Positions 21,557 through 49,800 of a stretch of DNA of 64,000 bases are shown in pieces. Numbering within the stretch: the first letter of the stretch is position 1; each line of letters begins with the position of its first letter. Both the position numbers and the translations under genes were made by a program. The DNA comes from Mustelus asterias (Eukaryota). The notes beneath the pieces were generated by a model. It searched no databases. It saw only the letters and a list, made by a program, of their open reading frames with translations, and was not told where the DNA came from. Location of the stretch: assembly GCF_964213995.1 (NCBI RefSeq), contig NC_135804.1, forward strand, positions 68,076,001-68,140,000, written 5' to 3'.

Positions 21557-24500
21557 GTTGTTTTATTTCTCCCTGTGTTGTTTGTTGCCCATGACTGTTT
21601 GTTATCTTGTAAACTGTACTGCTACTATGTGTCTTTCATACAATCATTATTCTGTTTTATGATAGTTGGCATTCGCGCTAATTTCCAAGTCTCTCAAGCT
21701 CCTGAAAACACGAACGCTCTCTTGGGCACAAACGTCACCTTCTATTGCACATTCCCTATTTTTCAAAATGCCTTAAATGTGGAAGTTTACTGGTGGAAAC
21801 TGGGTGAAAACGGATTTCTGCACAGAAGTTCAGACAGCAGGAAGATATTTCTCCGCTTTAAGCAAGGGGGTGCCTCATTTCAGCTCCTGAATATCAGTGC
21901 CCCGGATGCCGGTGTGTATTACTGCGGTGTCAAAACCTTGGAAAACAGGACTGCAAATGGAACCGGCTCAACGATCAAAGTATCAGGTAGGTGACGTTCT
22001 GGCACGAAGAAAAGGAAAGCTCATAGATAGTGTGGTGTTGCCATTATTTTTCACATTACAATTGTTTATATAATTTGAAAATTCAATCAAATTCTCTTGC
22101 CGGTTATGGGCAACCTGACCGAAGCCTCCATTTGGAACAGACATAGCCACACCTATGTATTGTTTATGTTTTCAGGCAGGAGTAACATAGTTTAGTTCAG
22201 CGAACGTCGTTGTGCCAAGATATGTAGAGTCGTTGTTCCAGGTGTAGAGTTGAAAAGTGCCATACCTACTTGACATGATTTATTGGTTCTTACATAAGCA
22301 AACCTCAATTTCATTTAGTGCCCCGGAAACTGATCGAACAATGCCCCTACTTTCGCGTTAAAATGAACGAGTAGTACTATCCGGATAAAAGCCATATCAC
22401 AATTTCTTATCAATGCATTGTTCCCTCAATAAATATTTGAACCGTCTAACAAACGTGTGAACCAAACGCGAGCGAAACATTTGATGAAGTCTGCACAAAA
22501 TTAAATTTTACAACTCTATGGAAGTCTTTAAGTTAGGAATGCTTAGAGTGGATTTTCACAGTCCTTCTATGTTAAGAAACGATACCTTGCCAAAACACAA
22601 TTATACAAGGGACTCAATTAACTATAACCAACATTTGAGGAGAGCCAAAGTTCATTCAACTATAGCCTATGGCCCGGAATAGATATTGTTTTCACCATAG
22701 TTATGTCCCCATAGTACTATATATTACGAATCAACAAGCTTTGATCATCGCCTATTTCAATTTGCTCAACAAGACCCTTTTTGAAGTCTTAACGAAAAAG
22801 AATCTATACAGATCTCCCAACAATTGGAACTTACAAAACATTATTTTGTTGAGACTGAATTTCCTTTTGCCAGTTACCTGTTGGCAAGAATATGGTAAGG
22901 GCTATGTTCCTCTTATTAATTACAAATTTGATTGTTGAAGTCATATGAATTGGCCGTTCGTGGACTAAAAGGCTGCAGAGTGAGAGAAACATGCAACAGA
23001 CAAGGGAGATATTGGGTCAATTATGCTTGCGCTGCATCTTTGTAAAGTGTATTTATTAGTCCTGATTCCCTGCAATTTCCCAATAACCCTCGAATCTATG
23101 TTCAAACACTGACAAATATATTGGTAAATGATTTCCATGCAAGGAATACAAATTTGTTGCAGTTACTTAACGCTCAAGGAGATCACATCGGATAAAGTAA
23201 ATGTAATTTGTGCAATCAAGAGAAAACTAACCCATAAAATTATTCGTTTTTTTTATTTTGTACCCTTCGCAGTTCCACCAACTCCGTTGAAGATTTTTTC
23301 CAAAGTACATGAAGTAAACTCTTCTTTCCTTGATCTCCTGTGCGAAACCAGTGAGTTTTACCCAAACGTGCTGAATCTCAGTTGGTATAAAGATGGGATT
23401 GAGATCAGGAACTGCACAGTGACAACCAAGTCATTGAACATAAATGGACTTTATAAAGTTTCAAGTATATTAAACAGGATGCAACCTGTCAGGAGCACAA
23501 CTGTTTACACCTGTCAGGTTTCTCACGTCACACTCCCTGTCCCAGCTAAAGTGGAATTTACTCTTCTGAACCCCAAGCAAGGTAAGGACCGACATCGTTA
23601 ACAACTCAATAAACTGGCGATACACTACTGTGCATTTACATTGTAATTTAACATTGATGGGGCGCGACCGAGCTTCAAATACGTTTCAGACATGTAGCGT
23701 AGATTCGGAATCAGTTCATAACTCCAACGTAAGCGAATGCAAACTCCAGCAAGTCGGCAGCTTTTCGTTGTAACTCGTTGATTCGTCAGGGAGCTTAAAT
23801 ACGTTACTCTACACAAGTTTAGAAAATTATGCTTTGTAATTAAGTGTTTCAGAAATTGCAGCTGCACTCTCAAAGCCGAAATTGTACGTAACTTAGCAAA
23901 ATAGTTTGTTTCCAAAAAAAGAGAATCTGCTGAATTATCTGGGATCCTCAATCGTTTCATGGCAAAAACGCGAAACCCAACCTGATTATTGCAGTTGGAT
24001 GATGTTACCTCCTTAGTTTCTTATGTAGTGTGTTTTGTTTGTACTTTAGAAAGAATCGGACCTCTCAGGGACAAAAGAGGGGAATTATGCTTAGAACCAA
24101 AGGAAGTCGGAGAGATCCTAAACTAATACTTTGTATCAGTATTCACAAAGGAGAGGGACATGTTGACTGGTAGTGTCTCAGAGCGATGTGTTGACCCGTT
24201 AGAAAAAATCTCAATTACAAGGGAGGAAGTGTAAGGTTTTTTAGGAAACATTAAGACAGACAAATCCCCAGGGCCAGAATGGCATCTATCCTAGACTCCT
24301 CAGGGAGGCAAAAGATGAAATTGATGGGAGTCTAACAGAATTCTTTGTCTCTTCACTGGACACAGGTGAGGTACCAGAGGATTGGAGGATATCAAATGTG
24401 GTCCCATTATTTAAGAAGGGTAGCAAGGATAAACCATGTAATTATAGGCCAGTGAGCTTGACATCCGTGGTAGGGAAATTTTTGGAGAAGATTCCTAGAG

Positions 24501-27500
24501 ATAGGATATATGTGCATTTGGAACTGAATAATCTCATTAGTGATAGACAGCATGGTTTTGTACGAGGGAGGTCATGCCTCACAAATTTGGTTGAGCTTTT
24601 TGGGGAGGTGACAAAATGGATTGACGAGGGAAGGGCCGTGGATTTTCAAGGTGAGGGCGGCAAGGTTCAACACAGATGTCAGGAGGGCGTATTTTACACA
24701 GAGGGTGGTGGGGGTCTGGAATGCACTGCCAAGCAAGGTGATTGAGGTGGACACGCTGGGATCGTTTAAGACTTATCTAGATAGCCACATGAACAGACTG
24801 GGAATAGAGGGATACAAATGAATGGTCTGGTTGGGGATATGATCCGCACAGGGTTGCAGGGCCGAAGGGCCTGTGCCTGTGCTGTATTGTTCTTTGTTCT
24901 TGTTCTTTGTTCTTTATACCATTTTACTTTCGAATTTATTTGAGTTATCTGCAGACAACTCCATTATCTTGAAGATTTGCTCACACCGACTAACCGCAGG
25001 CCTCTGCTAACATTTCAACTACCGAATTTTCCTTTGGTCCTTTCTCTAAAACCAAATTTAAACGCCCACACTTGAGTCAATTATTAGCTGCGGGCAATAC
25101 TTTATAATGTATGATTCCCAAAACATGGGAAATTAATAAATTTGAATAGCCATTGGTATAACGGTCCATTAATTAATGAAATGGTAATTAACCCACTCTA
25201 TTAATTTCAGTTCCGAACTTCATAATCAACCCTGCTTCACTGCATTCCCTCGAATGCAATGGACATATAATTAAGTAACGAACCCAAACATTTGACCAAA
25301 CTTCAGACTTTACCGCATCTCAATGTTGTGTTAAAACTTCCATGGATGAACAAAGAACAGTACAGCACAGGAAACAGGCCCTTCGGCGCTCCAAGCCTGT
25401 GCCGCTCATTGGTCCAACGAGACCATTCGTTTGTATCCCTCCATTCCCAGACTGCTCATGTGACTATCCAGGTAAATCAGCGTTTCTGCCTCCACCACCC
25501 TACTTTGCAGCGCATTCCAGGCCCCCACCACTCTCTGTGTAAAAAATGTCCCTCTGATATCTGAGTTGTACCTCGCCCCTCTCACCTTGAGCCCGTGACC
25601 CCTCGTGATCGTCACCTCCGACCTGGGAAAAAGCTTCCCACTGTTCGCCCTATCTATCCCCTTCATAATCTTGTTCACCTCCATTAGATCTCCCCTCATT
25701 CTCCGTCTTTTCAAGGAGAACAACCCCAGTTTACCCAATCTCTCCTCTTAGCTAAGACCCTCCATACATACATAGGATGCATAAAATAATCATCCGGCCG
25801 TCAAAATAAACGCATCAGCTTCCTTCCTAATTCGTGGCTTTCCCGCAAATGGACACAAATTAATTTGATTGTCAACATTTACTAGCGTGGAATGGTTTTG
25901 CTGCTTCTCCATGAGCAATGCCGATGGTTAAACATGTTCCCATATTATGGTGCACTTGCCCACTTAAGTACCCAGACACTAAATTGACTGATTCCATTGC
26001 GAATAAACTGCATCGACTTCCCATCCCCCCGCCACCAACCGCCCCCCCCCCCACCCCCCGCAAGAAATAACAAAAATCCGCCTGGTGCTAAAAAAGCTTG
26101 AAAATCTTACACTTACTCACCGAATATGAGCTATTGATTTATTTTGTGAACACCACCGGCATAAAAATCGACATCTGTGGCAATCTAAAGAGTAGAGCGG
26201 TCTTATTGAAAGAAATTGTTTGCAAATGTATTATAGCTACCACTTTGCGTTTTTCGACATTCGACCTTAGAAAAAAATCACTCTCAATAATTTGTTCCAT
26301 GAGGCTTTCCTTGTGTAACACACTATTCAGCCTCCTTAATCGAGGAATCGTTTCTTTCACGTCAATAACGATACTTCGTTGCTGTGAAGCTAATTGAAAA
26401 TTTGTTCCACATTTTCATCATTCTTTGTTTATTACAGAGCACTGTTATGTGTGCCACTTTTCAATGCACGAGAGCCACTTCTCAGGGATAAATTTTCCTC
26501 AAATGTAATGGCCTTGTTTTGAACATATCCACGCACAAGTAAAAAACAAATGTTGTCATCTGATCACCACTCTTCTCCATTAACTCACTTAAGTAAGGCT
26601 CTGACCTGAATTTCATTTATTACCCGATGAGCAATACAGCAAAGTCTGCTTCGAAAATCGCATCCCAACATATTATTCTGGAAGTTTTTACTGAATGCAT
26701 TCCATGAACTCGGTCTGAAATCTATATTTCCCACTTGGGTTTGCTGAACCAATTCAGAAATAAAAGTCGCCCAAGAACATTATCCTTGTTATAAGGGCTT
26801 TTAAATGTGCGATATTTATCGCCCGAACCATTAAATTTGAAGGGAGCCGGGTTTGAAGATACTTCTAACATGGTGTTCTGACGCTTGCTTTTTCATCTAT
26901 GCACCAACCCTGAACATAAATGTTTATCTCCTGAGTTTGTAACCATTCATATCGCTATTCTAAATAAACCTTCATTACCCGGAATTACTTCTTCTTTAAA
27001 AAAAACTATTACCCAGAAATGTTTAGTCTCCAAGTGCCCCGCTTTTAGTTAGCGCTGCTAGATGAAACAATTATTATTTTATTTTTTAGTGTCGCTAGTC
27101 GGTTCACATTAACACTGCAATGAAGTTACTGTGAAAATCCCCGAGTCGCCACACTCCGGCTCCTGCTGGGGAACACTGAGGGAGAATTTAGCATGGTCAA
27201 TGCACCTAACGGACGCGTCTTTCGGAATGTGGGAGGAAACTGGAGCACCCAAAAGAAACCCACACAGACACGGGGACAACATGCAATAAGTGTTCAAAGC
27301 TGGGGATTAAATCCGGGTCCCTGGTGCTGTGAGGCAGCAGTCCTAACCACTGTGCCACCGCACCACACCAACTGTCCATTACGTTATATATCTCTTAGGA
27401 ACATTTGCTGATTTATCGGCGTTTCCTGACATGGAAATTGTCGCCATTAATCGAGTGCCATTCAGAATCCTCCTGCCATTATCATAGAAACACTACAGTG

Positions 27501-30500
27501 CAAAAAAGGCCATTCGGCCCACGGAGTCAACACCGGTGCTTTGACCAAGTATCCCACCCAGGCTCTCGCCACTGCACTATCCATGTAATCCATACATTTA
27601 TCTGGGGTCAGCTATCCAATACCTAAAAAAATAACCTAAAAAAATAACCTAACCTGCATATCTTTGGACTGTGGGAGGAAACAGCAACGCCCGGCGGAAA
27701 CCCATGGAGTTTTGCAGAGAATGTGTAAACGCCACACAGAGATCACCCAAGATCGAAATTGAACCCTGGTCCCTCTAACAGTTAGGCTAACGACTGTACC
27801 ACTGTGCCACTGTGTCACACGGCTTTATCTATTCTACTTCAGTCATAATATAGTTAGATAGATAGAACATTACTTACTTAATATGGTTCCTGTCATTATT
27901 TTTCGTTGTCAATCAGGTGCTAAATTCCTGTTCAACTATCAAGTTATTTATATGAGTACTGCAGGTGCATTCATATTTCTACTGATGATCGCCATCACTG
28001 GAAGCTACTGTCACCGAAATAAAAAAGGTAAATAGGTCTTTATTCCAGAGTAACCTCAAGATCGTCAAATGTATGACATTGAATAATTTGAGTGAAAGCT
28101 AAAAAATATATGACATTCGATTTGTAAAATGCAGTCACGTTCATTTGTTAAGTCCAGTGCCTCGGGGAATTTATAAAGTATCCTCTATATTTTGCTTCGT
28201 GGTAACTTAATTGAATTATATTTGCCTCACTTTGAGATGCAGTTTAAACAAAATTGTTACCTGGAACAGTAGAAGTCAGGCACTATGAAGCAGTTATTGT
28301 TCTTGTCGTCTGAGTCCTAAACTGTCTTTGCAGTTTTGTTACCATTATAGACGCACCAAACGGGCGGTACGGTAGCACAGTGGCTAGCACTGCTGCTTCA
28401 CAGCGCCAGGGAGCTGGGTTCGATTCCTGGCTTGGGTCGCTAACTCTGTGAAGTTTGCGCGTTTTCCCAGTGTCTGCATGGAGTTTCCCCCGGGTGCTCT
28501 GGTTTCCTCCCATCATTCTGGAAGATGAGTTGGTTAGGCCGCATTGACCCGAACAGGCGCCGGACTGTGGTGCCTCGGGGAATTTTGCAGTAACTTCGTT
28601 GCAGTGTTAATGTCAGCGTTACTTGTGACTAATCAATGCAGTTTACATTATCATTTAATTAATATTTGACATATATTTGGAAAAGAAAATCATCGCTCGT
28701 CCCACTGTTTTAGTCGTTTATTGTTGGAGGATTGCGTTTCCAAATAATATTTTCATACAAATGCCCAAGTTTTTAATGGAATCAGCCAGATTGTCCTTCT
28801 TTAGAATGTTGCTGATCAATTGAAATTCATGGCGGAATAATATTTTAATTCCTTATCAGGACTGTGCCGATATGTGGATACTTCAGAACTTCGTGAACAG
28901 CAGGTAATTTCATATCATGTTTGCTCATGTATGTTAAATAAAATAATAAATGATACGCCATTGAATCATTGCACTTAAACTCCACGTTGATCAAATTAAT
29001 TTTACATTTCTTTTTCTACTCACAAACGTTCACAAATATATGTAACCCTTGTGAAAAGGCTGCCCAGTGGCACAGTGGTTAGCACTGCTGCTTCAGCGCC
29101 AGGGCCTCGGGTTTCATTCTTGGTTTGGGTCACCGTCTGCGCCGAGTCTGCCAGTTCTCCTCGCGTCTGCGTGGGTTTCCTCCGCGTATTCTAATTTCCT
29201 CCCACAGCCCAAAGGACGTGCTGGTTCGGTGCATTGGCAATGCTAAATTCTCCTTCAGTATATCCGAACAGGCGCCGTTCTTGTGGCGAATAGGGAATTT
29301 TCACAGTAACTTCATTGCCGTGTTAATGCAAGTCCACTGTGACACTAAATAAAATGAAGAAACCGAGGAAACGGTAGTGTTCTGAAGAAATACAACTCCA
29401 GTTCCGACGATAGTGTGTGTACTGTATTTTTCGGAAGTGTATGCGTAGATCATGAACAGCGGAGACCAGTTATTGAAAGTTGTGCAGTTTCTTCTGTTGA
29501 TGATTTTGCGAATATCAATGCATGAGTGGATGCTCGGAATGTGCCACATCAGATTGCAGGCCAGAAACTGCATTGTCTCAGCTCAATGTAAAGAAAGTCT
29601 TCACAGGGAGGTATCAGAAGTGATCGAAGCCACACTTCAGTCAGTTTCCAAAACAGTGGAAGTGAAATGCCCTGTAAATCAAACAGAATATATAAATATT
29701 CCGGTGCGTATTGTCACAAATTGTCAACATTCGACATCAACGTTTCAACTTTCCATCTAGTTTTTTATATAATTTGGAAACCAGTTTAAAAACGGATTTT
29801 ATCTGTTCGTCTGTTTATAGATAGAGCAGAGGATGAACTAATGTTTAAATTGCATTAGGTTCGAAGAGTTCCGCTGTCTTCGAATGAAAGAATCCCTACA
29901 GTGCAGAAAGAGGCCATTCGCCTCATCAAGCCTAGTACGACCATAATCCCATCCAGACGTTATCCCAGTAATCCCACTTAATTATCCCCCTAATCTCCCT
30001 AATACTGAGGGACAATTTACCATGGCCATTCCAGGTAACCTGCACATCTTTGGAATGTACAAGGAAACTGGAACAATCGGAAGGAACTGACACAGGCAAC
30101 GGAAAAATGTGCGAACTCCACATAGACAGTCACTCGCGGCTGGTTATAAACAGGAGAGTTAACCCGCTAGAGAAATGGACAGCGTTTGACAAAGCACGGT
30201 GATAAACATAGCATAAACGTGCGTCAAAAGCCTATCCTTCACGCTGTTCCATTAAGTGCGATCCTTCTACCAAATTTTATATCAGCTATCTTATCCTTTC
30301 TTTTCGGGAAATTATTCAATTTTATAATTATGCATAAAGTGACCGAAAACTTTGAAATTAACAGAATCAAACCGCTGGATTATAGCAGGTAATAGCTGAC
30401 CAAAGTGATTGACACTTTTCCAGAAGTTGCTGAATGAGTGGAAAGAGAAATGCGGTGGCTGGTAACTATATGGATTATCAAAACGCTTCTGATAATAAAA

Positions 30501-33500
30501 GGCATTAGCGACAATTGAACTAAAGTTAAATTTAATTACATAATTCCGACAATGCAGAAAGAGGCATTCCGCCCATCAGGTCGACACGAAAATCCGAATA
30601 GAAGGCATTATACAGGCGTTCACATTCACTAAGACTAAACCATCTAACCTACACATCTTGAGACACTCAGGGACAATTTGAGATGGTCACTCTACTTAAC
30701 ACACAGGATAGAACCGATAGCAGGAAACTGTAACACCCAGTGGAAACTCATGCAGACATGGGGAGAATGAATTTGATTTGATTTGATTTGTTATTGTCAC
30801 ATGTATTAGCATACAGTGAAAAGTATTGTTTCTTGTGCACTAAACAGACAGAGCATAGCATTCATAGAGAAGACAACGAGAAAGTGCAGAATGTCGAGTT
30901 ACAGTCATTGTTAGGGTGTAAAGAAAGATCAACTTAATGCAAGGTAGGACCATTCAAAAGTCTGATGGCAGCAGGGAAGAAACTGTTCTTGAGTCCGTTA
31001 GCATGTGACCTCAGACTTTTCTATCTTTTTCCCGATGGAAGAAGGTGGAAGAGAGAATGTCCGGGGTGCATGGTGCCCTTAATTATGCTGGCTGCTTTGT
31101 CGAGACAGCAGGAAGTGTAGACAGAGTCAATGGATGGGAGGCTGGTTTGCTTGATGGATTGGGTTACATTCACAACCTTTTGTATTTTCTTGTGGCCTTG
31201 GCCAGAGCAGGAGCCATAGCAAGCTGTGGAAGGTGGTGACAGTTGTAGCTGACATGCCAAATTTCCTTAGTCTTCCTTAATCTTCTGAGAAAGTGGAGGC
31301 GTTGCTGGGCTTCCTTTACTATTGCGTCGGCACGGGAGGAAGAGGACAGGTTGGTAGTGATCTGGACACCTGAAAATCTGAAGCTCTTGACCCTTTCTAC
31401 TTCGTCCACATTGATATCGACAACGACATATTCTCCTCTATGCTTTCTGAAGTTGATGACAATCGGTTTCGCTCTGTTGACATTGAGGGAGAGATTGTTG
31501 TCCCCGCACCAGTTCACCAGATTCTCCAGCTCATTCCTGTACTCTGTCTCGTCATTGTTTGAGATCTGAGCCACTCTGGTGGTGTCGTCAGCAAACTTGA
31601 AAATTGAGTTGGAGGGGAATTTGACCACACTGTCATAGGTAAATAAGACGTATAGTAGGGGGCTGAGAACACAGCCTTGGGGGGCACTGGTGTTGAGGGT
31701 GATCGTGGAGGAGATGTTGTTGTCTATCCTTAATGATTGTGTCTACGGGTTAGGAAGTTCAGGATCCAGCCACAGAGGGAGGAGCGGAGGCCCAGGCCAC
31801 GGAGTTTGGAGATGAATTTCATAGGAATAATGGTGTTGACGGCTGAGCTGTAGTCAATAAATAGGAGTCTAACATCGGTCTTTGTTATCTAGGTGTTCCA
31901 GGGTTGAGTGCAGGGCCAGGGGGATGGCTCTGCTGTGGACCTGTTGCGGCAGTAGGCAAACTGTAGTGGATCCAGGCAGTCTGGGAGGCTGGAATTGATT
32001 CGTGCCATGACTCGCGTTTGAAACACTTCATAATGATGGATGTCAGAGCCATTGAATGATAGTCATTGAGGAACACTGCATGGCTTTTCATTGGTTCCGG
32101 GATCATGCTCGTTTTCGTGAAGCAGATAGGGACCTAAGATTATTGAAAGGAGAGTTTGAAGATGTCTGCGAATATCCCTGCCAGCTGATCATGCAGGATC
32201 TGAGTGCTCATCTGGGTACCCCATCGGACCAGTCGCTTTCTGTGGGTTGACCTTCGAGAAAGCTGCTCTGACAGCGGCAATGGTGACCTCATGTACAGGT
32301 TCATCCAAGACTTCAAGGGTGGAGGGCACGCTCTCACTGATTTCTTGCTCAAAACAGGCATAGAATGCATTGAGCTCCTCAGGGAGCGGTGCGTAGGAGC
32401 CCTGATTTTATATGCCTTCATCTTACAGCCTGTTATGTCTTGCAAACGTTGCCATAGTCGGCGGGGGTCTGTGTGGCTGGCCTGGGACTCTAGCTTGATC
32501 TGGAACTGTCTTTTGGCATCATTGATGGATCTCCTTAGGTCGTTTATGGCTTTCTTGGTTAGGTCAGGCTCGCCTGACTTGAATGCCTCAGACCTAGAGC
32601 AAGCAGCCACACAAATGATCTGCCGAGGCTGGAATCGAACACGGCTCCTAGGCACTGTGAAGTAGCATTAAATGAAATTATTTACATGGCATGCACATTT
32701 GCACAATGGTAGTCGACAGATATGAACAATAATAGGTAAACACTCCGATTGCCCGGATATAACTGGTTTATTCTGGTAGGGCTATGTTGAGACTTTGAAA
32801 ATTCATGGGATTTATTCAAGACTTCATGAAATAGAACACCACACATTGAAATTTCTTGATGACACAAATATAGGACAGTACGAAGTCTCACAACACCAGG
32901 TTAAAGTCCAACAGGTTTATTTAGTATCACAAGCTTTTGGAACGCTGCTCTCTTTCACCAGTGGGGAGGAGTGTTCACAAAGGCGGCATATATAGACAGT
33001 GACTCAATTGCAAGATAATGGTTGGAATGCGAGACTTTGGAGGTAATCAAGTCTTTACAGGTACAGATAATGCGAATGGGGAGAGTGATTACAGATTAAA
33101 GAGGTGTGAGTTGTCTCAAGCCAGGACAGTTAATAGGATTTTGCAAGCTCAGGCCAAATGGTGGGGGTTACATGTAGTGTGACACGAACCCAAGATCCCG
33201 TTTGAGGCTGTCCTCATGCGTGTGGCACTTGGCTATCAGTTTCTGGCTCGGGGATTCTGCATTGTCGTGTGTCTCGTGTGCCACAAGGGATGAACGGACA
33301 CCATGCGAGAATCACCAGACAGGAATGTTCCCTTCCTGTCGTGGAACACTTCAGTAGCCAAAGACATTCAGTCTTCGATCTTCAGGTAAGCGTTCTCCAA
33401 GGCAGACTTCAAGACACATGATAACGCAGAATCGCCGAGCAGAAACTGATACCCCAGTTCACACACATGAAGACGGCTTCAACCGTCTATATGTCACACT

Positions 33501-34712
33501 CCATGTAACCCCACCATTTGGCCTGGGCTTGCGCAATTTGTGTATGGAGTTGTGTGTGTTTGTGTGGAGTTTGCACATTCTCTTCGTGTCTGCATGGGTT
33601 TCCTCCGGGTGCTCCGGTTTCCCCCCACAGTCCAAAAATGCGCGGGTTAGGTTGATTGGCTATGCTAAATTGCCCCTTAGTGTCCTGAGATGCGTAGGTT
33701 AGAGGGATTAGTGGCTAAAATATGTAGGGATATGGACGTAGGGCCTGGGTAGGATTGTGGTCCGTGCAGACTCGATGGGCCGAATGGCCTCTTTCTGTAC
33801 TGTAGGGATTCTATGAATAATCCTACCAACTGTCCTGGCTTGAGACAATTCACATCTCTTTAACCTGTGATTATCCCTCTCTCCACTCGCATTGTTTCTT
33901 CCTGCAAATACTAGGTTGTCTGTAAAGACTTGTATTCCAAGCATTCTCTTGCAATTGAGTCTCTGTCAATATATGCCGTCTTTGTGAACCCACCTCCCCA
34001 CTCACCTGATGAAGTGGAAGCGCTCCGAAAGCCCGTGATACCAAATAAACCTGTGTTGTGAGACTTCTTACTGTACCCAGCTCAGTCCAACGCCAGCATC
34101 TCCACATCCAAAACATAGGAGTTATTCTAAACCTGTTCAAGGAAAGAAGGAAAGGCTTGAAGAGCTGTGCTATTTCATCCGTTTGGAGAGATATTCTGGG
34201 GACACAGCGACATTGTCTAAAAAACATATAGCTACAAATTTCAGGAGTGGAATTAGGAACAAATTCTAGAGGGAGGGAAAAGTTCTAACCTTTGTGGGAT
34301 TGCTTACAAACACGCGAATTGGTTTTGTTCGAATTGTTCCCCGAAACAATGTATTAATAGATACGTGCCGCGCGTGTAAATTCAAGGGCGACAGAGTCAC
34401 GAGGCGCTAAATAATTCGCCCTGTTCCAATGTTCCCATGTATGTTATTTTCACTCTTTTTGAATGAACATTGATGCAATTTTGTTGGCAGATAAATAAAA
34501 TGATGAGCTAACAACATTCTCCATTGTTGACTTCACAGATGGAGCAACTCACCACTGATAACAAGCTGACCTATGCTTCTCTTGATCTGAGTGGCTTCAA
34601 GAAAACTCGGAAACCGAAATCCAATGAGGCAAATACAGAACATGCTCAGCTTAGTACAACGATGCCAAGCAGAGCAACAGAGGTTATCTACACAGATACC
34701 AGAATCGCATAA
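21502..34712 (+). CDS. Gene A: non-rearranging VJ-C1-TM-ITIM IgSF receptor (SIRP-like), join(21502..21556,21666..21986,23273..23581,27917..28027,28860..28903,34539..34712), 337 aa
   Basis: All introns are GT-AG with matching phases 1-1-1-1-0; 1014 nt open through the stop; exon organisation is mirrored in gene B. Confidence 0.88.
21666..21986 (+). CDS. Gene A exon 2, V-set Ig domain with fused J-like strand
   Basis: [13 protein letters not shown]...VYWWK...DAGVYYC...NGTGSTIKV; acceptor gatag, donor gtaggt. Confidence 0.95.
23273..23581 (+). CDS. Gene A exon 3, C1-set Ig domain
   Basis: VPPTP...[10 protein letters not shown]...WYKDG...NGLYKVSS...YTCQVSH; acceptor cttcgcag, donor gtaagg. Confidence 0.95.
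24045..24915 (+). mobile_element. CR1 LINE with a large internal deletion (intronic)
   Basis: VPLFKKG...NYRPVSLTS...[14 protein letters not shown] jumps at about 24645 to FKVRAARF...[13 protein letters not shown]; (ttcttt)n tail. Confidence 0.9.
25345..25765 (-). mobile_element. CR1 LINE 3' fragment
   Basis: ORF 25406-25738(-) [15 protein letters not shown]...[13 protein letters not shown]. Confidence 0.9.
27080..27820 (-). mobile_element. Two HE1-type SINE copies (about 27080-27365 and 27480-27820)
   Basis: Reverse-complement V-SINE core tgtgggaggaaac...cccac and tRNA-like head gctgtgaggcagcag...aaccactgtgcc. Confidence 0.8.
27917..28027 (+). CDS. Gene A exon 4, transmembrane segment
   Basis: [37 protein letters not shown]; 111 nt, phase 1-1, same length as the gene B TM exon; no charged residue in the TM. 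Confidence 0.85.
28360..28640 (+). mobile_element. HE1-type SINE
   Basis: gggcggtacggtagcacagtggctagcactgctgcttcacagcgccaggga...gggttcgattcc (A/B boxes) plus V core. Confidence 0.88.
28860..28903 (+). CDS. Gene A exon 5, 44-nt cytoplasmic exon [15 protein letters not shown]
   Basis: ccttatcag acceptor, cagcag|gtaatt donor; same size and QQ ending as gene B exon 56864-56907. Confidence 0.85.
29060..29355 (+). mobile_element. HE1-type SINE
   Basis: gtggcacagtggttagcactgctgcttca head, V core and gtgacactaaataaa tail. Confidence 0.82.
29880..30770 (-). mobile_element. Two diverged HE1 SINE copies (about 29880-30140 and 30550-30770)
   Basis: cagtgcagaaagaggccattcg tails and aacctgcacatctttg core on the reverse strand. 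Confidence 0.65.
30771..32595 (-). mobile_element. Rex-Babar LINE, long 3' portion, decayed
   Basis: Minus-strand ORFs with [35 protein letters not shown] and LLPSGKR. Confidence 0.9.
32872..34110. mobile_element. Penelope-like element with inverted 3' segments, HE1 SINE inserted at about 33540-33815
   Basis: 32872-33280 is the reverse complement of the + strand 3' portion; + strand MNGH...VEHF...LQG...AEQKLI (GIY-YIG C-terminus); pLTR ctcacctgatgaag...ccgaaag. Confidence 0.85.
34539..34712 (+). CDS. Gene A exon 6, ITIM-bearing cytoplasmic tail
   Basis: [38 protein letters not shown]...VIYTDTRIA*; phase-0 acceptor cttcacag. Confidence 0.88.
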   Translation: MEQLTTDNKLTYASLDLSGFKKTRKPKSNEANTEHAQLSTTMPSRATEVIYTDTRIA

Positions 34713-37240: not shown

Positions 37241-38264
37241 AGTATTGTCACATTCAATGTGTATATATATCTCGGAAAATTGGTTACCATTCCGATCAGT
37301 CTTTATATCCAAAATCAGATTTTATTAAATGGATTATCTATGTAGTCGACCTCTTGAATGCAATTGAAAGAGCAGTTATTGAATAGCATTCCATTCTCTC
37401 AAGTAATGTACTGTGGCACGGCAGTATATTAATATGCAATACTAATATGCTCTTATAATATGTCGCAATTCCAACATTGATTGAATATGTAAATAATCGC
37501 ATGTTTGCTCACCAAGCTTCAGAAGATCATCATCGCAATTCTATTATTTGCAACTACTGACAGGATGTAACCACATCATTTGCCTACTAGTCTATTCAGG
37601 TTTAAAAATTAAAACGTTGTAGGTATATTTAAGCCTAATAGATTTAGAAAATAAAAAACAACGATAATCTTCTATTCTAAAATCAAGCTTTATATCCAGC
37701 TAGAATAAAGAAATACATTATTTGTGCCTAAATTAAAGCCTCTTCGATATTTGACACATATCTCTCGCCATATTTGCCTTTTTCTTAATTAAATTGCCTC
37801 GGACATTTGGGTTTACAGTAACGTTTGTGTTTTTTTTTACTCTGGTAGCTGTGTCAGCACTTTTAATGTCAATCCGCTGAAGTAAATAACTGTGTGTATA
37901 CGATACACAGAACGGGAAAAAAAAACCGTTAGCACAATGCAAAGTGCTCGTAGCATTCTTACCGAAATAAACATGCAGCAAAGCATTCTTCATTGAACTC
38001 GTTATTTTATTTATCCACTGTTCCATGGGAAACTGTTTATTTCCAAAAGTCTCTGCCCAAATTATGTAACATCCCTTCTGTGGACTTGGACAGCCTTGCA
38101 CAGACACATTAACGTGTAAGATCAATGCCAAGATCAACATGAAAATTATTGCAATCCCTTGTGGGATTGATGTTTCCACAGCACCCAGCCATTCTAATAG
38201 CCATGCACCCATGGTAAACAATGACGGTTGTTTAAGTTTCTGCGCCTCTGTCCTGCTGTGAGCA

Positions 38265-38477
38265 CAGTAAGTACTTTAAGAACACCAGGTTAAAGTCCAA
38301 CAGGCTTATTTGGTAGCAAAAGCCACACAAGCTTTCGGAGCTCCAAGCCCCTTCTTCAGGTGAGAAGGGGCTTGGAGCTCCGAAAGCTTGTGTGGCTTTT
38401 GCTACCAAATAAACCTGTTGGACTTTAACTTAGTGTTGTTAAACTTCTTACTGTTTACCCAAGTCCAACGCCGGCAT
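38265..38477. mobile_element. Palindromic Penelope pLTR insertion with a 12-bp target-site duplication
   Basis: About 91-nt inverted arms (38265-38355 and 38363-38453); ctgctgtgagca at 38253-38264 and 38478-38489. Confidence 0.9.
38323..38364 (-). ncRNA. Minimal hammerhead-ribozyme motif (Penelope pLTR type)
   Basis: Minus strand CAC-CUGAAGA-A-GGGGC uugga GCUCC-GAAAG-CUU-GUG. Confidence 0.65.
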
Positions 38478-40059: not shown

Positions 40060-40315
40060 ACACATCTTTTTAGCCTGTCTTGATGCTCTCTCCACTCCCA
40101 TTGTTTTGTTTCTTAAAGACTTGATTAGTTGTAAGTATTCGCATTCCAACCATTATTCATGTAAATTGAGTCTGTGTCTTTATAAACTCTGTTTGTGAAC
40201 AGAATTCCCACTCACCTGAAGAAGGGGCTTAGAGCTTCGAAAGCTTGTGTGGCTTTTGCTACCAAATAAACCTGTTGGACTTTAACCTGTTGTTGTTAAA
40301 CTTCTTACTGTCTCA
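40060..40315 (+). mobile_element. Penelope 3' end/pLTR with hammerhead motif at about 40213-40250
   Basis: ctcacctgaagaaggggcttagagcttcgaaagcttgtg...aataaacctgttggactttaacc; same family as 38265-38477. Confidence 0.85.
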
Positions 40316-40329
40316 GATGTCCACATTAT

Positions 40330-42400: not shown

Positions 42401-42619
42401 GATGATTTTTCAGACCATGCGACCGCGCCGCAACAAATGGAGTGCAATCGTCCAAACGTTGGCCAATCAGCAACAAGAGCGCGCATTCCCAGGACTGAAA
42501 GTCGGCAGAGTCAATTGGGGAACTGTTAGGAGCAGACATGTTCTGCTGGGTTGCAAATTATTTCGATGTAAACTGTTGAATGAACATTTTTATGTTGTAC
42601 ACTTGCTATACCGAATCGC

Positions 42620-42960
42620 TGCAGTGTATTTATCACTTCATGCGATGTGGACGTCGCTGGCAAGGCCGGCATGTGCTGCCCATCACCAACTAGCATTAAA
42701 CTGAGCGACGTGTCACGGCTTTTCCGAGGTCAGTTAAGCTTCATCCACAATGATGTGGACTTTCAATCACACGTAAGCAAGACCAGGTATGATTGGGAGA
42801 TTTCCTTCCATAAAATCATTCATGGACGAAATGTTGGTTTTGCAGCAATACACGAGAGTTTCATGGCAATCATTGGACGTTTATTTATAGATTTTTGATA
42901 AACCAACTCGACTGTGGCGAGATTCATATATTGGAATTCAAAGCCTTAGCTAGGGTCTGT
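42620..42960 (-). mobile_element. tRNA-derived SINE (second family; + strand copy at about 53225-53510)
   Basis: Reverse complement of gaaggaaatct...gatgggca...gccagcgacg; matches 53225-53510. Confidence 0.55.
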
Positions 42961-45900
42961 AGATTCTTTCTCTAGTGATTAATATTCAATACGTTGCAAT
43001 TATTTGAACTGATTTGTTATGGTATAGGTTGAGCTTCAAGGACTATATCTTGTTTTCTGCGGCAGTAATCTAAGCAAAAAGTCCTTCTGTAGCAATTCCA
43101 TCATTTGCCTCTCACAAATATATTTCAATTGCTACTCACATTTAATATAAACATGCTTCAACACACAACCACACAGACTGCACTGTTACTCTGACCAATA
43201 TCAGGTTGCTTGCACACAGTGCAGCCTTTTCAATTATATCTAAACTCGGGTCATTGAAGTGTGCAATCACCGGATTAGATATTCTCACTAAGCATAGAAT
43301 GAAACATTAAATATGGACTTGATTTTCATGTGGTGAACTGGAGAGAGGGAAAGATATGGGGTCACCGGGGTGGGGTTATGGGCGGCAGTACCAAAGACAT
43401 CAGTTTGACAGAAGACAAGGCCATGCACTAACTTTACTGAAGAGGAGAAACATGAAACATCAGTGGGCAGACTGAAAGCAAGGAATGTCAATTATGCACA
43501 AATAAATGCGCGGCTCATTTGGAAGCCAGAATGAAAACGGCGTGCACTCAAGGTCATGAAGGACTCCAGCACCAATGTGGAGTATCACTTTATGCAGAAC
43601 TTGGAACACTTATTTTCCTTTACAGTACAGCTGCCCAAATTCACTAGTAATGTTGCGAACACAACTGTGACGACATATCTAATGGTCATTTCCACGTTTA
43701 CTTTGGAGTGCTTCAGTTAAAGCTCAGAATTACCTCCCACAAGCCGACATCTGTTGGTTGCGATTCTGACTGACAATTTGTATGTTCAGAGATTCGCTGC
43801 ATCCCTTCAAACTCGGTGGCCAGTGCCCTCCCAGAGCCACTGTGCATTCTTGTCGAATTAGTATGAACGTTCACTGCAATTATTGCTTCAGTCAGTGAAG
43901 TTCCGCTGTGTAGGACACATTATATTTCTATGAAAAGTGACATAAAATAATGTACAAACGTAATTATTGAAACTTTGGTGACCTGATAACTCAATTACAT
44001 CTGGAAAGCTTACGTTGTGGTGCCTTTTATTTTTGCTTTGTCGCCCTGAGCATTATTTCTCGGTCCGTGGCGGAAGAAACGGAAGAAGTATTGACGACTG
44101 GTGAACGGGGAAGGTCTGTTATAATTTCGGCATTACAGGAGAATAAGGTTAAATTGTAATCGCTGGAAGAAAGAGGCTGCTCAATTTTTGCCCAGCCATG
44201 ATTTCTTCCCACAAAGTCTCAATCGTTTCACTTGGCCGTCTCATTCATTTTGTTTCTCATAAGTATATCATGTGATAGTAGATTACAAGGTCTGTCCCTT
44301 CAGGTATTTTAAATTTTATATTTTATGGTAGCTTAGCACCATGGATGGTGAACAAGCATCAACAGATTATTTATTTATAATGATAATTGAAGGAAGGGAC
44401 ATTGTTGCTCCAGTACAACAGTGAGCTCACATACGCCAATTGTTGCAGCAAAATGGCCCGCCTTTTCTAAGTACTGCGTATGTTGCAAACTATGGTCATC
44501 AATAATGTTGCCATTAGATTAACCTTGTCGCCCAATATTCATGGAGTTGTGTTTGAAACATCGATGAGTCAGTGGAAATGTTCATCATGAAATCGTCGCG
44601 ATGTGCGCCAGAATGCCATTAACTGACCTGTTAATAAAATCCCTATGCTAACACACTATTTGGCGTTGAATCAACCGTTCTGCTTTCTGCACATGCAACA
44701 GTTTACAAAGGTTCTCTGCAATGCAATTGCCATGCAATAAATGGCGCACTTCATGGCGAAGGCAGTAATCTAACAAGCACTCTTTCCAACTCCCATCGCT
44801 TTTCTCTGGCAAGGTATATTGCATTCAAAATATTGTTTTTAAGCCGAAACTTAGTGTGCTCGCATTTGAAATATCATCTTGCCAATGCTGAAATGTTAAT
44901 AAGGCCTTATACTCAAGCCGCAAAGATGCCGAATGCATATCAGGATATTTAAAGGGGCAATTATTGCCTTGCGGCGAGATTGCAGCTTTGACTGTCGCAG
45001 TTTGCGGATTTCAGTGATGGAATCTTTATTGCGGTGTGAGCAACGCTTACACATTTCCTCGATCAGGTCCCATTGTGCGAATTGATTCCTTGAGACTATC
45101 AAGAGTTATGTCGTCATTTGCCGAAACGTGAAAACCTTCTTTCAGAGTTTGTCCTGCTATAGCTGCCTTTGATCATGCCCTGTTGCAGGTCTTCGGACTA
45201 CACTTTGAGGCACGTCTGGGCGCAATGAAATTTTACAGCAGTCCTGTAATTTTCATTAATAAATCATAAAACGTGCTGGAGAAACTGAAATATGGGAAGC
45301 ATGTGGACATCCGCGGAGTTTCAACAACATCTAGACAAAGGTAACTCAGGAATTAATCTATGAACATTGATTACGGCGTCCAGATGGAGCTGCCAGCAGT
45401 CAAAAGTCTGCACTTTCGCAGACCAATGTGTCGACCGAAATACCGTTTAAACTCCCAAAATCGAGCGCTGCAGAGTCCTCATTCTCACACAACATGTCTC
45501 ATTATGGATTTTTCAAGCTGATTTGTTGAAGAGACACATTGATGGCTGTTGTGCGCACGCAACTCACACCTCTTTAGAGGGCAGTCCATTTCAAATGATC
45601 TCCTGTAACCTAAAATTCCAGGTGAAAGGCCGGAGGAAACTGAGTGGGCAACAATACTTACAATGCATGGCCACAGCCGTTGTCTATCCTTAATTCATTG
45701 TCACAAATAAATTTTGAATGACATGTTTGTCCATTGCCCTTGTCCTTGTCTCTCTTATCTGGACCCTTGCACATTTCTACGCAGAATATACTCTCCTCAT
45801 TTCCTGTTCTTCTCAATATTTCCTGTAGGGAACCGCACCTGCCTACTTGAGGCGATTGGCTATTGTGTAGTGAATATTCTATGATCAATGGTCATGCGGC

Positions 45901-46808
45901 CTCCTTATCCTCCTGTACACTTGTCATGTATTACGTTGTTACAAACCTTCCTTTTGTCTTTATAACAGAAGTTTGTGCCTGTGTTACTGCCGTTTCAATC
46001 ATTCTCAGGCCAGTAAATTATGCAACAGGCCAAACTCTCCCGCCTCCCAACTCGTGACTTTTTCAGTGAATGAACCATGGGAAAGTTCGACTTTGCTGTC
46101 TTTTAGGAAGCAGAAACACATACTCTCGATCATAGCATACATTTGTTATATCAAACAGCCTAATAATACGAAGCTACAACTTGAAAACAAATATTATGCG
46201 TTACACGTGTTTTGCGTTGGTTATGCAGCAGTCTCCGGGGCTACGTATGGAGTCCTGGCTCATAACGTTGCAAATCATTCGCTATTTCCTACATTAGGGC
46301 TCCTAAGCATGTTTTTGTGCTATCTGGAGTGACGTGCGGTCATTCGTGGTTTTGTCTCAATTTTCACAATTTCAGGGTACATCTCCAAAAGAGGTGGAAA
46401 GGAAACCATGGAGGAAAAAAACAACGGGCCTGAAGTCGACATTCTCCTCTTTTATCAGCTGATTTTCTTGAGTAATCCTCAGCGAAATTTGGAGAATTTC
46501 TACCCATAAAATACAAAAATTCAGAAATCCACAATAGCCCAGGAAGTTTTGACCACTTAATTGTACATGGATCGAGGTCCAGGAGCGAAATGGACCGCGT
46601 TGTACCTGCTGAATCTTGAAATTGTGGTTTCTTCTAAAAAATATCCAACTGTTTTAGCAGATTTAAACAAAATAATGGCAACATGCTCTTGACACATCGA
46701 CCGGATGTTACACTTCATTGTCATTATTGAATACGTTGGCAACTTCGCGTTGTTGTAAACCAAAAGGCAGTTCAGACTCTGTTGCTGTGGCTCGTCGACT
46801 GGTTAAGA

Positions 46809-46857
46809 ATGTTGTCAAGTGTGGTGTGCTTCTCTGCTCTGGCGCTCATTTTCACAG
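46809..46857 (+). CDS. Gene B exon 1, signal peptide MLSSVVCFSALALIFT
   Basis: Hydrophobic leader, phase-1 donor acag|gttcca (weak). Confidence 0.72.
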
Positions 46858-49800
46858 GTTCCAGTTCATTTTCTATGCGGGTTGCTTGTTAAACCGCGCA
46901 ATTATCAAGCTGTAATTTAATTCATCATGTTTGCTTGTACTTGGGACAAATTAAGTAACTCACTAAACCCCGCGCTTTTTATCGTACTATTGCTCCGGAC
47001 TAATTCGGTTTTGATTTTCAGTAGGCTCTGGTCAATCTGTGGTGAAAGTAACTCAGCTACCTGCGAACGTGAGCAAAAACAAGGGGACAAATGTCTCCTT
47101 TCATTGCTCGCTTCCTTTCTTTCAAGACGGTCCGGCTGTGAGTATGCAATGGTGGAAACACGGTGACAACCAATATATACGTACAAAAGAAAATGGCCGA
47201 AAAGTAACTGGATTAAAGACAATATTCAGTGGTTTCCTTCAGATCAACAATGTGATCGTGCAAGACGCAGGGGTATACTATTGCACTGCCACTCATCGAG
47301 GCATTATTGCTGGTAATGGGACGGGCTCCAATTTAACTGTACGAGGTAGGTTTGGATGAAATGAGATTGAGATCCATAATGAATCATTCGCACGTCAAAA
47401 CATGTCTCGATTGTGCTTCGAATATTTTATATTGGATCCTAGCAGAAGGCTTTGTTACGGTTTATTGGGATTTGGATGTCACTGGCTGGGGCAAAATATA
47501 TTCGTTCATTCCCAATCCCCTTGTGCTCGGCTTTTTATAAAGATAGGTAAGATTAAAACACATTGCACTGGGCCTTCGTTCTCATATAGGCCAGAACAAG
47601 CAACGATGAAAGCAGAACCACCGGTTCAGCCACCTACGCAGTTTCCGATTGTTTCATATGTATATATTCACATTGCAATAATTATGACAATTGTTTCCTC
47701 TAATTGAAATTACAGTTTTCTATCCAGCAGCAAAAAAAAAAACACATGGACTCCGTATGCAGTTCATTTACTACTGCCATTCATGCGCTGTTAATTTGAA
47801 TTTAGCTTCGCTATTGCCATTGCTTTCATAGATCTATTTCTTATGATAAATGCACTGCACAGTCGAGATCTATGCTCAGCACAAACCAACGCGATCTAGT
47901 CTGCAAAGCAGCACAGTGTTTTCGAAAAAAGACCGAAACAGCAGAGGGACTGTTAAACTTTTTCGATGACCAAGTAAAGCATTTTCCCTTACCTTTTATT
48001 TCATAGTTCCACCAACTCCGCTGAAAATTAACTCTCAGTATCCTGAAAATGACTCATCCGCGCCTCCTGCTATTCTATGCTCAACGTCTCCATTTTACCC
48101 GAGGAATATCAATTTCACTTGGTACAAGGATGGCACCAAAGCTACAGGAATGGTAAAGACCATAATTGAATCCAAGACTGATGGACTATATGAAGCTTCT
48201 AGTCGTTTGCAAGAGACGCAGCCTATCCAGTTAGGAACTATGTACACCTGTCTGGTGACCCACAGCACCCTTCAAATTTCAGCGTCCGTCACTCACATTG
48301 TCACCAATCCCAATAGAGGTAAGCATTCTGATAGAGGAATATAATTTCAGAACACATGCAATCTGGCATATCAATGTCGGTTCTTTGGAGAAAGAAAATG
48401 TTTCATTTGGTCCCACGCCACAGATTTGCTTTAAATTAGTTTGCTTCAAACGTATCTTCAAATGCCTTTTTTGAAAAGTTATAAGTTCATTGTTCCTAAA
48501 ACTTCCTGCACCTCCCTAAAAATCGATGGAAAAGCGTTCTTCTCAAATTCAATTTATTTTAGACAAGAAAATCTACTTGACTGCGGCTTATATATGCAAT
48601 TTAAAAAGTATACGTGTATTTGCTCTCCATCGAAATCAGTCGTAACTCCGATTCATTCTTTCAAGTTGCATTTACGCTTCCCTTCTGTAATGGGAAAATC
48701 ATAGTGTCTCATATCTCTCAAAGTAACTAGAGAGTTTGAGCCCTTCCAAAGTCCTGGTCATTTTTGTCCTATGCTGCCTGAGGTGAACTGGCGATTATTG
48801 TGTTGAATTGTTCAGCCAAGAACTATGCAATCTCCGACGTTTGGCATAATACTTTGCGTTTTCTGATTTAATAAAGTCACTATTTATAAAATTCAATTAA
48901 TCCCTGAATCATCCCGAAGAAACTTACGGTCTTGTCCTGTCACGCCCAAAGACTTCTGCATGTGGAGCCTTACATTGTATTGATTTTGGCTGAAAATAAT
49001 CCCTTTTTGGCTACATTATTTTCTCCCCAAAAATCCAATTTTCATTATTATTCGTATTACATTGCACCTAAATTTCGTCTGTCCATGTTGGCAGTCTTGT
49101 TGTACTATTGTGAAGTTTGCTATTGTTGTGCACGCTGCATGCCACCATTCATATAATTTCTCTGATCCATTAACTTCGAAATTGTACTCGATATTTCCCA
49201 GTCTATGTCATTGAGTTTTTCATATCAAGCATTGGGTCTCACAATTATGGCGGCTAAAGATTGGGGTCTTGACACAAAAGATGGTCTTTATCAATGGTTG
49301 CTCAGTTTGCAGTTACCAATAGCCCACAAAATAAATTCTCACACACGCAACCTCTCCCCGTCACTGCCCCCACCCCGCCCAGAGGAAACATTAAATCAGG
49401 TCTTGATCTTGGTAAATTGCAATGTAAATTTGCCAACAATATCTCCTCTCCAAGCACCGTTTTTCCGTAGTCTCATACTTCCTCCATCTCCACTGAAAAT
49501 TAGGTCTCTGCAAACTGTCACTGATTTATCTCTCTATATTGCTGTTATTTTCGAGGAATCTCCCTCCCCCCCCCCCCACCAGCCACTCCCCCCCTCCCCG
49601 CCGCACATACACACGCCATTCCCCACCCCAACTCTCCCCACCCCCGCCAATCCCTGAAGAATGTCAGATACCATTTGAATAAGAATGTCTCCAAAATTAC
49701 AGTAGATATAAATAACATTGCTCAACTAATAACCAATGGGCCATAGGGAATTTGGTTTTGCAATGTTCCCAGCACATCAATTTTGTGCTTGCTTATGGCT

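Follow-up and report, generated by a model that had tools for sequence, protein, structure and literature searches.

Short V domains, probably shortened independently of VNAR, in germline-encoded VJ-C1 receptors of cartilaginous fish

Two intact VJ-C1 genes in the window

The 64,000-nucleotide stretch of the Mustelus asterias genome analysed here (the window) contains two genes, both intact with open frames and a leader-VJ-C1-transmembrane-ITIM layout that includes one C1 exon per gene (Table 1). Splicing from V to C1 to the transmembrane exon is seen in transcript-type contigs for gene 1 or a near-identical copy of it; the four runs searched gave no spliced contig for gene 2, which carries no weight either way. 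The two genes encode membrane proteins of antibody-like type, which from their sequence are likely inhibitory immune receptors. An earlier sequence-only reading of the interval 21666..47345, from the start of V exon 1 to the end of V exon 2, had proposed a non-rearranging receptor, and this holds: the V domain and the J-like strand lie within one exon in both genes, and no recombination heptamer is found from 200 nt before to 300 nt after either V exon. NAR-TCR-type V exons of the same genome do show a heptamer.

Table 1. Positions of the exons of the two genes in the window.
Feature	Positions	Strand	Remarks
Gene 1 leader exon	21502..21556	+	55 nt, phase 1; tblastn with P0025 matches 18/18 residues; GT donor, open model
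Gene 1 single-exon VJ (V exon 1)	21666..21986	+	Cys codons 21746, 21923; N-glycan site at J Phe/Trp position; spliced to C1 (contig 16, run X5)
Gene 1 C1-set exon	23273..23581	+	Pfam C1-set 45.9 bits; splice joints in runs X3, X5
Gene 1 transmembrane exon	27917..28027	+	hydrophobic core without charged residue; joined to C1 in X3 and X5 contigs
Gene 1 first cytoplasmic exon	28860..28903	+	open gene model
Gene 1 last exon	34539..34712	+	one ITIM-like motif, LTYASL; in the second, switch-type motif Tyr is replaced by His
Gene 2 leader exon	46809..46857	+	49 nt, phase 1; identified by eye in the sequence
Gene 2 single-exon VJ (V exon 2)	47022..47345	+	Cys codons 47105, 47282; 58 aa between Cys; N-glycan site as in gene 1
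Gene 2 C1-set exon	48007..48318	+	Pfam C1-set 51.5 bits
Gene 2 transmembrane exon	55982..56092	+	uncharged
Gene 2 first cytoplasmic exon	56864..56907	+	weak match by tblastn; AG/GT sites present, reading frame preserved
Gene 2 second cytoplasmic exon	58459..58557	+	first Tyr motif degenerate; acceptor choice inferred
Gene 2 last exon	59493..59660	+	ITIM-like VTYAAL and switch-like TVYVQI

The short V domain is a family trait

Exactly 58 residues separate the two cysteines in V exon 1 and in V exon 2, which reproduces the count of the sequence-only reading. The family alignment has 79 rows, made up of 22 V exons from the M. asterias genome and 57 database proteins that were chosen for a complete V domain and include isoforms and near-copies. 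The spacing is 58 in 59 rows, 57 in 5, 56 in 2, 55 in 3, 53 in 9, and 59 in 1; the relatives with this short V domain (range 53–59) come from sharks, rays, and a chimaera. The 58-residue spacing is a family trait and not a matter of chance. An assembly or splicing artefact was ruled out, since the Cys-Cys stretch lies in a single exon, is found family-wide, and is matched by transcript-type contigs.

The domains had been called short against conventional V domains of about 65–75 residues and close to IgNAR V at about 60. Within the same genome, the spacing is 64–72 in all 17 Ig/TCR V domains, with kappa V at 64 marking the bottom of the range of ordinary V domains; the window domains are thus short, against a reference range that starts slightly lower than first given. 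VNAR-type domains have 60 in 3/3, as claimed, and the NAR-TCR-type V domains 59 and 62 (n=2).

The WWK motif at the core tryptophan is present in both V exons, and WW[KR] occurs in 70 of the 79 rows. Its first Trp is the core Trp in 78/79 rows, and the second is kept in 71/79. The motif had been called unusual; it is a family marker but structurally ordinary, because the second Trp occupies the position that is Tyr or Phe in other V domains (WFRK in VNAR, WFRG in SIRP, and WYQQ in IgL), so that WWK departs only mildly from the common W-aromatic-basic pattern. WWK as a special tie to VNAR was ruled out for the same reason.

Predicted fold of the V domains

AlphaFold models of the two domains have pLDDT values of 92.8 (V1) and 91.2 (V2). 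DSSP assigns strands to residues 5–7, 10–13, 19–24, 34–40, 55–60, 64–69, 78–86, 91–93, and 97–101 of the V1 model; V2 has the same strands plus one bridge residue at 47. The predicted fold is A/A'-B-C-D-E-F-G, in which a 14-residue non-strand linker joins C and D, C'' is absent, and C' comprises one residue at most. The models therefore agree with the claimed loss of the C'/C''-CDR2 region, and neither has the full C' and C'' strands of a classical nine-strand V domain. The V-set core features Cys-Trp-Cys, D-x-G-x-Y-x-C, the D-strand Arg, and a J-like G-x-G are all present.

Each of the three VIA searches put VNAR in first place, alone or tied (Z 15.0–15.4 and 14.6), consistent with the likeness initially suggested. 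NCAM Ig1, NCAM2, and basigin tie with it (Z 14.2–15.0), and NKp30/NCR3, PD-L2, and CD79b are also in the match lists. No SIRP V structure is among the fold-search matches listed, and one may stand further down. The fold ranking favours equal length.

With I-set domains (NCAM Ig1, basigin/CD147, titin) the family V domain shares, in its models, a split A/A', a C' that is very short or missing, the lack of C'', and a straight C-D linker; the first three features are those by which PMC8470474 defines the I-set. An ordinary I-set domain that never had a C'' and was joined to a C1 exon, with nothing lost, would explain this topology as well as the ties in the fold searches. Multi-domain I-set proteins also lead the PDB sequence search, V2, at 28.9, exceeds the Pfam I-set threshold of 23.7, and the W-x-K-x-G turn resembles the I-set signature. 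However, both exons score higher as V-set than as I-set (30.7 vs 20.0; 35.7 vs 28.9), with V1 below the I-set cut-off. The family also differs from I-set domains in its split G strand with a J-like diglycine G-x-G, its longer BC loop (14 vs 11–12 in 3 I-set rows), and its V-C1-transmembrane receptor layout. The best single-domain sequence matches include PD-L1 and amphioxus IgVJ-C2, and the nearest Atlas clusters are V-set (homologue P0006). An I-set assignment, named at the outset as what would speak against a loss, fits the topology, although the sequence scores higher as V-set, and we consider an I-set origin improbable.

A shortening probably separate from that in VNAR

The length difference lies in the segment between strands C and D. 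The core Trp and the D-strand Arg are 16 steps apart in 70/79 rows and 14 in 9, compared with 18 in NAR V and 26–30 in Ig/TCR V (each counted to its own Arg). The family linker, K-x-G-E-x-x-Y/F-L-x4-D-x-R, is a conserved scaffold, whereas the linker of VNAR and NAR-TCR V is hypervariable and carries a different motif, x-P-G/Q-T...E-R/D-I-x-x-x-G-R, in all five NAR rows of the M. asterias genome. Comparison of the 79-row alignment with these five rows found no NAR signature in the family linker, and the conserved linker hydrophobic residue lies at Trp+9 in the family versus Trp+13 in NAR. When only the framework is compared with the family, the three VNAR-type rows rank 5th, 30th, and 37th of 43, and UrIg-type V domains, with a spacing of 73–74, come last; the family profile gives the germline-joined NAR-type row L063 37.5 bits, which places it 6th among the 43. 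A V-only profile run against the PDB retrieved no VNAR among the best 60 of 2945 sequence matches.

VNAR and NAR-TCR V resemble the family in a predicted topology without C''/CDR2, a vestigial C', near-equal length, and likely single-domain use. They rearrange, through V(D)J joining at recombination signals, whereas the family encodes V and J in one exon without signals; the FG loop is a rearranged CDR3 in the former and short and of fixed length in the latter. The family V domain is followed by one C1, a transmembrane segment, and an ITIM tail, in place of IgH or TCR constant regions. The two also lie on different contigs: a NAR-type query gave 58 genome matches, none on the contig of the family.

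On this sequence evidence, the C'/C'' loss is most likely separate from that of VNAR, a case of convergence and not of shared descent. A VNAR origin is not supported: the family has a different linker sequence and breakpoint, its framework shows no more than unremarkable similarity, its C1 lies outside the Ig C clade (see below), and short V domains also occur in ray (an NKp30-related domain, 60), lizard (a SIRP-like domain, 59), and turtle (multi-V ITIM proteins, 59–62). C'' loss is known beyond VNAR from PD-L2 as well (PMC12051499). Of the two relations to VNAR/NAR-TCR V that the sequence-only reading had offered, convergence is thus favoured, and kinship is not supported, though no V tree rejects it.

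Phylogeny and the sister group

Four V trees (1–4, with AU tests in trees 2, 3, and 4) and two C1 trees do not agree on a sister group of the family. A family + NAR clade, for which a phylogeny including VNAR had been suggested, is neither recovered in any of the four V trees nor rejected (AU p 0.42 in tree 2, 0.20 in tree 3, and 0.34 in tree 4). Of the three small trees, trees 2 and 4 put NAR V together with the antigen receptors. In tree 4, built with linker and CDR1 removed (64 columns, non-mixture model), the five NAR rows, two of them NAR-TCR V, fall weakly beside TCR; in tree 3, NAR rows are on the side of the family (83/89, unstarred). A family + SIRP V clade has AU p 0.20–0.30 (trees 2–4) and is not a supported clade.

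The corrected C1 tree, from which seven rows were dropped (four long or mutually attracting, three redundant), places the family C1 outside a 15-row Ig/UrIg C clade (98/95), no TCR C rows being in the tree, and next to the Ig clade, as its sister without support (77/0). Grouping the family with one NAR/IgW/IgM subclade was not rejected (AU p 0.13). SIRP-type C1 was sister to the family C1 at 93/81 in the first C1 tree, in which one V domain (P0061) was mis-included as C1, but not in the corrected tree (p 0.18).

Descent of the family V and NAR-TCR/VNAR V from one already shortened single-domain V, with the family as the unrearranged sister, would explain why the same region is lost, the near-equal length (58 vs 59–62), and the top rank of VNAR in fold searches, and the AU tests do not reject it. 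The family V and NAR V are both chondrichthyan and occur in the chimaera too; NAR-TCR is described in C. milii (PMC3964593). Against such descent stand the different linker signature and anchor position, the lack of any special framework similarity to VNAR, the place of NAR V in two of the three small trees, the separate contigs, and the position of the family C1, while a fold ranking that rewards equal length also ties I-set domains with VNAR. Shared descent is in our judgement unlikely. We give little credence, too, to its extension, in which the family survives as the germline sister of NAR V: an ancient VJ domain, already short and unpaired, would have belonged to an innate on/off receptor, and the rearranging TCR-delta/IgH locus would have captured one copy to yield NAR-TCR and then the shark nanobodies.

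V tree 4 joins the family to B7H6-like and turtle domains with starred support (96/92). This would fit a short V domain older than cartilaginous fish, from a jawed-vertebrate B7/NKp30-related lineage that was also the source of the turtle multi-V ITIM proteins. Outside the family, the best matches are turtle domains (48.8, 45.9, and 42.0 bits), which are of similar length and in several cases share the G-N-G-T-G strand. However, the grouping is biased upward because the family profile itself had picked out the turtle and B7H6-like rows, and it is unstarred in V trees 1, 2, and 3. The turtle proteins are without C1, and in a further search with 19 matches all named ones were turtle. An origin of this age is doubtful.

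Comparison with SIRP, NKp30, and UrIg

Many family members are labelled SIRP-like in databases. Both systems have a single-exon VJ followed by C1 and are clustered, with ITIM/ITSM-tailed and short-tailed members, and SIRP-alpha (2wng) is third among PDB matches of the V+C1 profile. SIRP proteins, however, have a V and two C1 domains, whereas the family has one C1 (V spliced to C1 to transmembrane in run X5), and the spacing in the N-terminal V of four SIRP rows is 63–66 against 58. The transmembrane residue is Lys in SIRP-beta1 and Arg in the short-tailed family members. The human SIRP locus has NSFL1C and SNPH as neighbours; of these two markers, the only ones tried, the SEP and syntaphilin families are on contigs C7 and C20 and none on C4, the family contig. 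No V or C1 exon was found within 190 kb around the NSFL1C-like gene, nor, in a stricter first look, any genome match to a lungfish SIRP-like protein; neither result implies absence.

NKp30/NCR3, PD-L2, and CD79b are likewise non-rearranging immune receptors with shortened C'/C'' regions, and NKp30 is described as I-type (PMC5371597). NKp30 is without C1, which the family has, and a shark-type NKp30-like V lies on contig C8 together with MHC class II-like exons (labels from sequence). UrIg/UrIg2 and PRARP, the latter compared by description only, also join a single-exon VJ to C1 and do not rearrange. UrIg2 (9dmx) is the first PDB match of the V+C1 profile, owing to the several C domains that it contains; UrIg-type proteins have a long V and at least three C domains, compared with the short V and one C1 of the family.

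Proposed origin and role of the family

At least 58 family V loci lie on contig C4 of the M. asterias genome. The family is clustered and, as judged by motifs only, includes ITIM/ITSM-tailed members (21 of 50 proteins scanned) and short-tailed members with a charged transmembrane segment (transmembrane Arg, by eye, in P0017, P0026, P0027, P0060, and P0126). In gene 1, a single ITIM-like motif is intact. The N-glycan site at the J position occurs in 59/79 alignment rows as well as in both window genes. No published description of the family was found in a search that covered few subscription papers.

The window genes belong to a large cartilaginous-fish family of germline-encoded VJ-C1 membrane proteins. 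They are likely inhibitory members of a paired immune-receptor system, and the predicted C'/C'' loss in their V domain probably arose through a deletion independent of that in VNAR. Because Callorhinchus members share it, this deletion would be older than the divergence of sharks and chimaeras. The V would work as an unpaired single domain, given that the conserved N-glycan sits at the J position that packs between VH and VL in antibodies and that the C'/C'' edge is gone; the glycan likely keeps the V unpaired. The ligand of the domain, from a cell surface or a pathogen, would be bound by loops that vary in the germline or by the GFC face, with diversity coming from gene number and not from recombination. 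Ligand binding would lead to ITIM/ITSM phosphorylation and recruitment of SHP-1/2, and short-tailed sister genes with the transmembrane Arg would activate through an adaptor of the FcR-gamma/CD3-zeta type.

The short topology is itself known from VNAR, PD-L2, and the I-set, which limits the surprise. If convergence holds, a V domain was shortened in the same place at least twice in cartilaginous fish, once in rearranging NAR and once in a 420-million-year-old germline family of about 60 receptors. Loss of C''/CDR2 would then accompany single-domain use and not mark ancestry, which bears on whether the I-set-like fold of VNAR is primitive or derived. The family also supplies candidate on/off receptors of shark leukocytes, and its compact single domains form a natural library.

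Two germline VJ-C1 membrane-protein genes

Both V exons score above the cut-off as V-set domains in Pfam (V1, 30.7 bits; V2, 35.7 bits) and lower as I-set domains (20.0 and 28.9 bits, cut-off 23.7), and each lies upstream of a C1-set exon (Pfam). Gene models built from homologues mapped back to the window are complete, with GT-AG introns and open frames. No recombination heptamer was found in or near the V1 and V2 exons.

Positions and domain organization of the two genes and their V exons
Feature	Position	Strand	Description
V1 exon	21666-21986	+	58 residues between the two Cys; WWK at core Trp
V2 exon	47022-47345	+	58 residues between the two Cys; WWK at core Trp
Gene 1	21502-34712	+	337 aa; leader, VJ, C1, uncharged TM, tyrosine-motif tail
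Gene 2	46809-59660	+	368 aa; leader, VJ, C1, uncharged TM, tyrosine-motif tail

Gene 1 closely matches the Mustelus asterias database model P0025. Its V, C1 and TM exons are joined within one contig of run X5, and its C1 and TM exons within one contig of run X3; since the genome holds a V copy of 99% identity at a distance of 1.3 Mb, these joints show that either gene 1 or this twin is spliced. That copy belongs to a near-identical duplicate of the gene pair (G000:C4:69428555-69447652; L026/L032, L002), in which the V2 copy is 92% identical, with a stop codon where the core Trp would be. In gene 2, the homologue-expected acceptor of the second cytoplasmic exon (58446-58459) is AA, not AG; an in-frame AG is usable 9 nt downstream. 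The first tyrosine motif of this exon has lost its Tyr. LINE reverse transcriptase-like and Harbinger-type transposase-like fragments were seen by eye between and within the genes (638-1345, 7900-8133, 24245-24742, 31173-31742 and 62378-63946).

The genes belong to a cartilaginous-fish family of germline VJ-C1 membrane proteins, likely receptors, with a short V domain. Two genome searches (54 and 60 matches) yielded at least 58 distinct V loci, all on contig C4: one at 54.7 Mb, 28 at 58-60 Mb and 29 at 67-70 Mb. Sharks, rays and Callorhinchus have relatives, automatically named SIRP-like, lambda-like or tapasin-like, among other labels. In the defining features compared, the family does not fit VNAR, classical SIRP or NKp30. 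No description of it was found in the literature searched, including passages of PMC10751288, PMC3964593, PMC11599192, PMC5371597 and PMC7916673; a term search of PMC4279169 gave no matches.

Residues are missing between the C and D strands

Direct counting in V1 and V2 confirmed the 58-residue spacing reported by the sequence-only reading. Across a 79-row alignment (22 V exons of this genome and 57 database proteins, chosen for a complete V and including isoforms and near-copies), the spacing ranges from 53 to 59 and is 58 in 59 rows. Nine of the 79 (P0019, P0021, P0027, P0058, P0099 and others) have only 53 residues, having lost more of the DE loop, of the BC loop or of the linker (the segment from the C to the D strand) in ways that vary by subgroup.

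The distance from the first Cys to the core Trp is 14 in 71/79 rows, a little above the 11-13 of Ig/TCR V, and that from the D-strand Arg to the second Cys is 28 versus 27-29. The core Trp and this Arg are separated by 16 steps in 70/79 rows; the corresponding distance is 18 in NAR V (VNAR and NAR-TCR V), 22-23 in the bat SIRP and NKp30-like rows and 26-30 in Ig/TCR V. MAFFT set the family Arg two columns to the left of the Arg of other V domains; we infer that it is the D-strand Arg because the modeled D and E strands (55-60 and 64-69) fit that register. The loss is thus in the C'/CDR2/C'' region, as had been proposed.

AlphaFold2 models of V1 (49-row alignment, pLDDT 92.8) and V2 (79 rows, pLDDT 91.2) have A, A', B, C, D, E and F strands followed by a G strand in two pieces; between C and D the only strand-like element is one bridge residue in V2. 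The top VIA-align match among 48,161 chains was a skate VNAR for both V1 (Z 15.0, rmsd 2.0, 98 aligned) and V2 (Z 14.6, rmsd 1.9, 98 aligned), with the I-set domains tied: NCAM/NCAM2 Ig1 and basigin lie within 1 Z for both, as do CD79b, PD-1 and antibody domains for V1. Many top rows of a second VIA list are VNARs (Z up to 15.4), with Fabs at equal Z, and the top Foldseek rows mix PD-L1, VNAR, NKp30 and NCAM. VNAR and I-set domains are described as near-superimposable in PMC8470474, and PMC12051499 describes PD-L2 as lacking C'' and PD-1 as having a disordered one; the VNAR match is therefore a matter of equal length and topology rather than of kinship. The short spacing is a real, family-wide feature, and the models predict a VNAR/I-set-like topology.

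The short V is probably convergent with VNAR

The sequence-only reading left the compact V either convergent with or related to VNAR/NAR-TCR V. Comparison domains (VNAR, NAR-TCR V, IgH, IgL, TCR and NKp30-like) came from this genome, with class labels assigned from sequence, and from database matches. The family was monophyletic in all four V trees (support 96/98 to 99/98), none of which recovered it and NAR V as one clade, and its sister was unsupported in three. The framework-only tree (64 columns) grouped it with B7H6-like and turtle domains (96/92) and placed the NAR V clade (100/99) weakly beside TCR. A clade of the family with NAR V was not rejected by AU tests (p 0.42, 0.20 and 0.34), nor were groupings with SIRP, turtle or NKp30 domains. 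Framework similarity to three VNAR-type rows was middling (ranks 5, 30 and 37 of 43), VNAR was absent from the best 60 PDB sequences of the V-only profile, and profile-profile identity with VNAR was 27%.

The NAR V linker has an antigen-receptor-length C-C' loop and a hydrophobic anchor 13 residues past Trp, whereas the family linker turns tightly at K-x-G and places its anchor 9 residues past Trp, pointing to different breakpoints. Short V domains were also seen in an NKp30-related protein of a ray, in a SIRP-like protein of a lizard and in ITIM receptors of turtles; shortening is therefore recurrent. In the C1 tree the family lay outside a starred Ig/UrIg clade; AU tests rejected its grouping with one NAR C domain (p 0.037) but not that with another NAR/IgW/IgM subclade (p 0.13). 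NAR genes were located on C71 and on small contigs together with exons of IgH and TCR, which fits the linked complex reported in PMC12227049, and the NAR-type genome search found none on C4. We consider convergence likely and a shared origin with NAR V improbable.

Other short or NAR-type V domains were encountered. Outside sharks, the family V finds its best match in a turtle multigene family (P0120, P0130, P0175-P0181, P0187-P0205; multi-V, ITIM-tailed, V spacing 59-62), mostly on 43-47 Mb chromosomes under uninformative automatic names. The multi-V protein P0169 (Mobula) groups with NKp30-like V (97/95), and its repeats, with only 60 residues between Cys, form a further short-V lineage within cartilaginous fish. 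L063 (G000:C71:2929536-2929787) is a NAR-type V with germline-joined D/J-like sequence and has decayed relatives on several contigs (L187-L191, L201). NAR-TCR-type V exons with Phe replacing the core Trp (L192, L194 and many copies on C71 and small contigs) are numerous, with dozens of matches in the NAR-type search.

Proposed working of the V domain

VNAR offsets its lost CDR2 through a rearranged CDR3 and variable HV2 and HV4. The family, unlike VNAR, has a short FG loop of nearly fixed length and conserved linker anchors (Gly 91%, Tyr/Phe 85%, Leu/Met/Ile 91%, Asp 80%, Arg 89%); variation in the 79 rows falls on the BC and FG loops and on four positions in the middle of the linker. In antibodies the J-position Phe/Trp packs in the VH-VL interface; here that position is Asn in 85% of rows, with an N-glycan site in 59/79, including both window genes. 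A rough regex scan of 50 family proteins found ITIM/ITSM-like motifs in 21 and a TM arginine in several short-tailed members, five clear by eye; six models lack the TM. These sequence features suggest an unpaired single V domain that would bind a putative ligand, with a repertoire supplied by gene copies. The proteins would work in the manner of SIRP/NKp30-type paired receptors: ITIM/ITSM tails may deliver an OFF signal, and adaptors paired with the TM arginine an ON signal.
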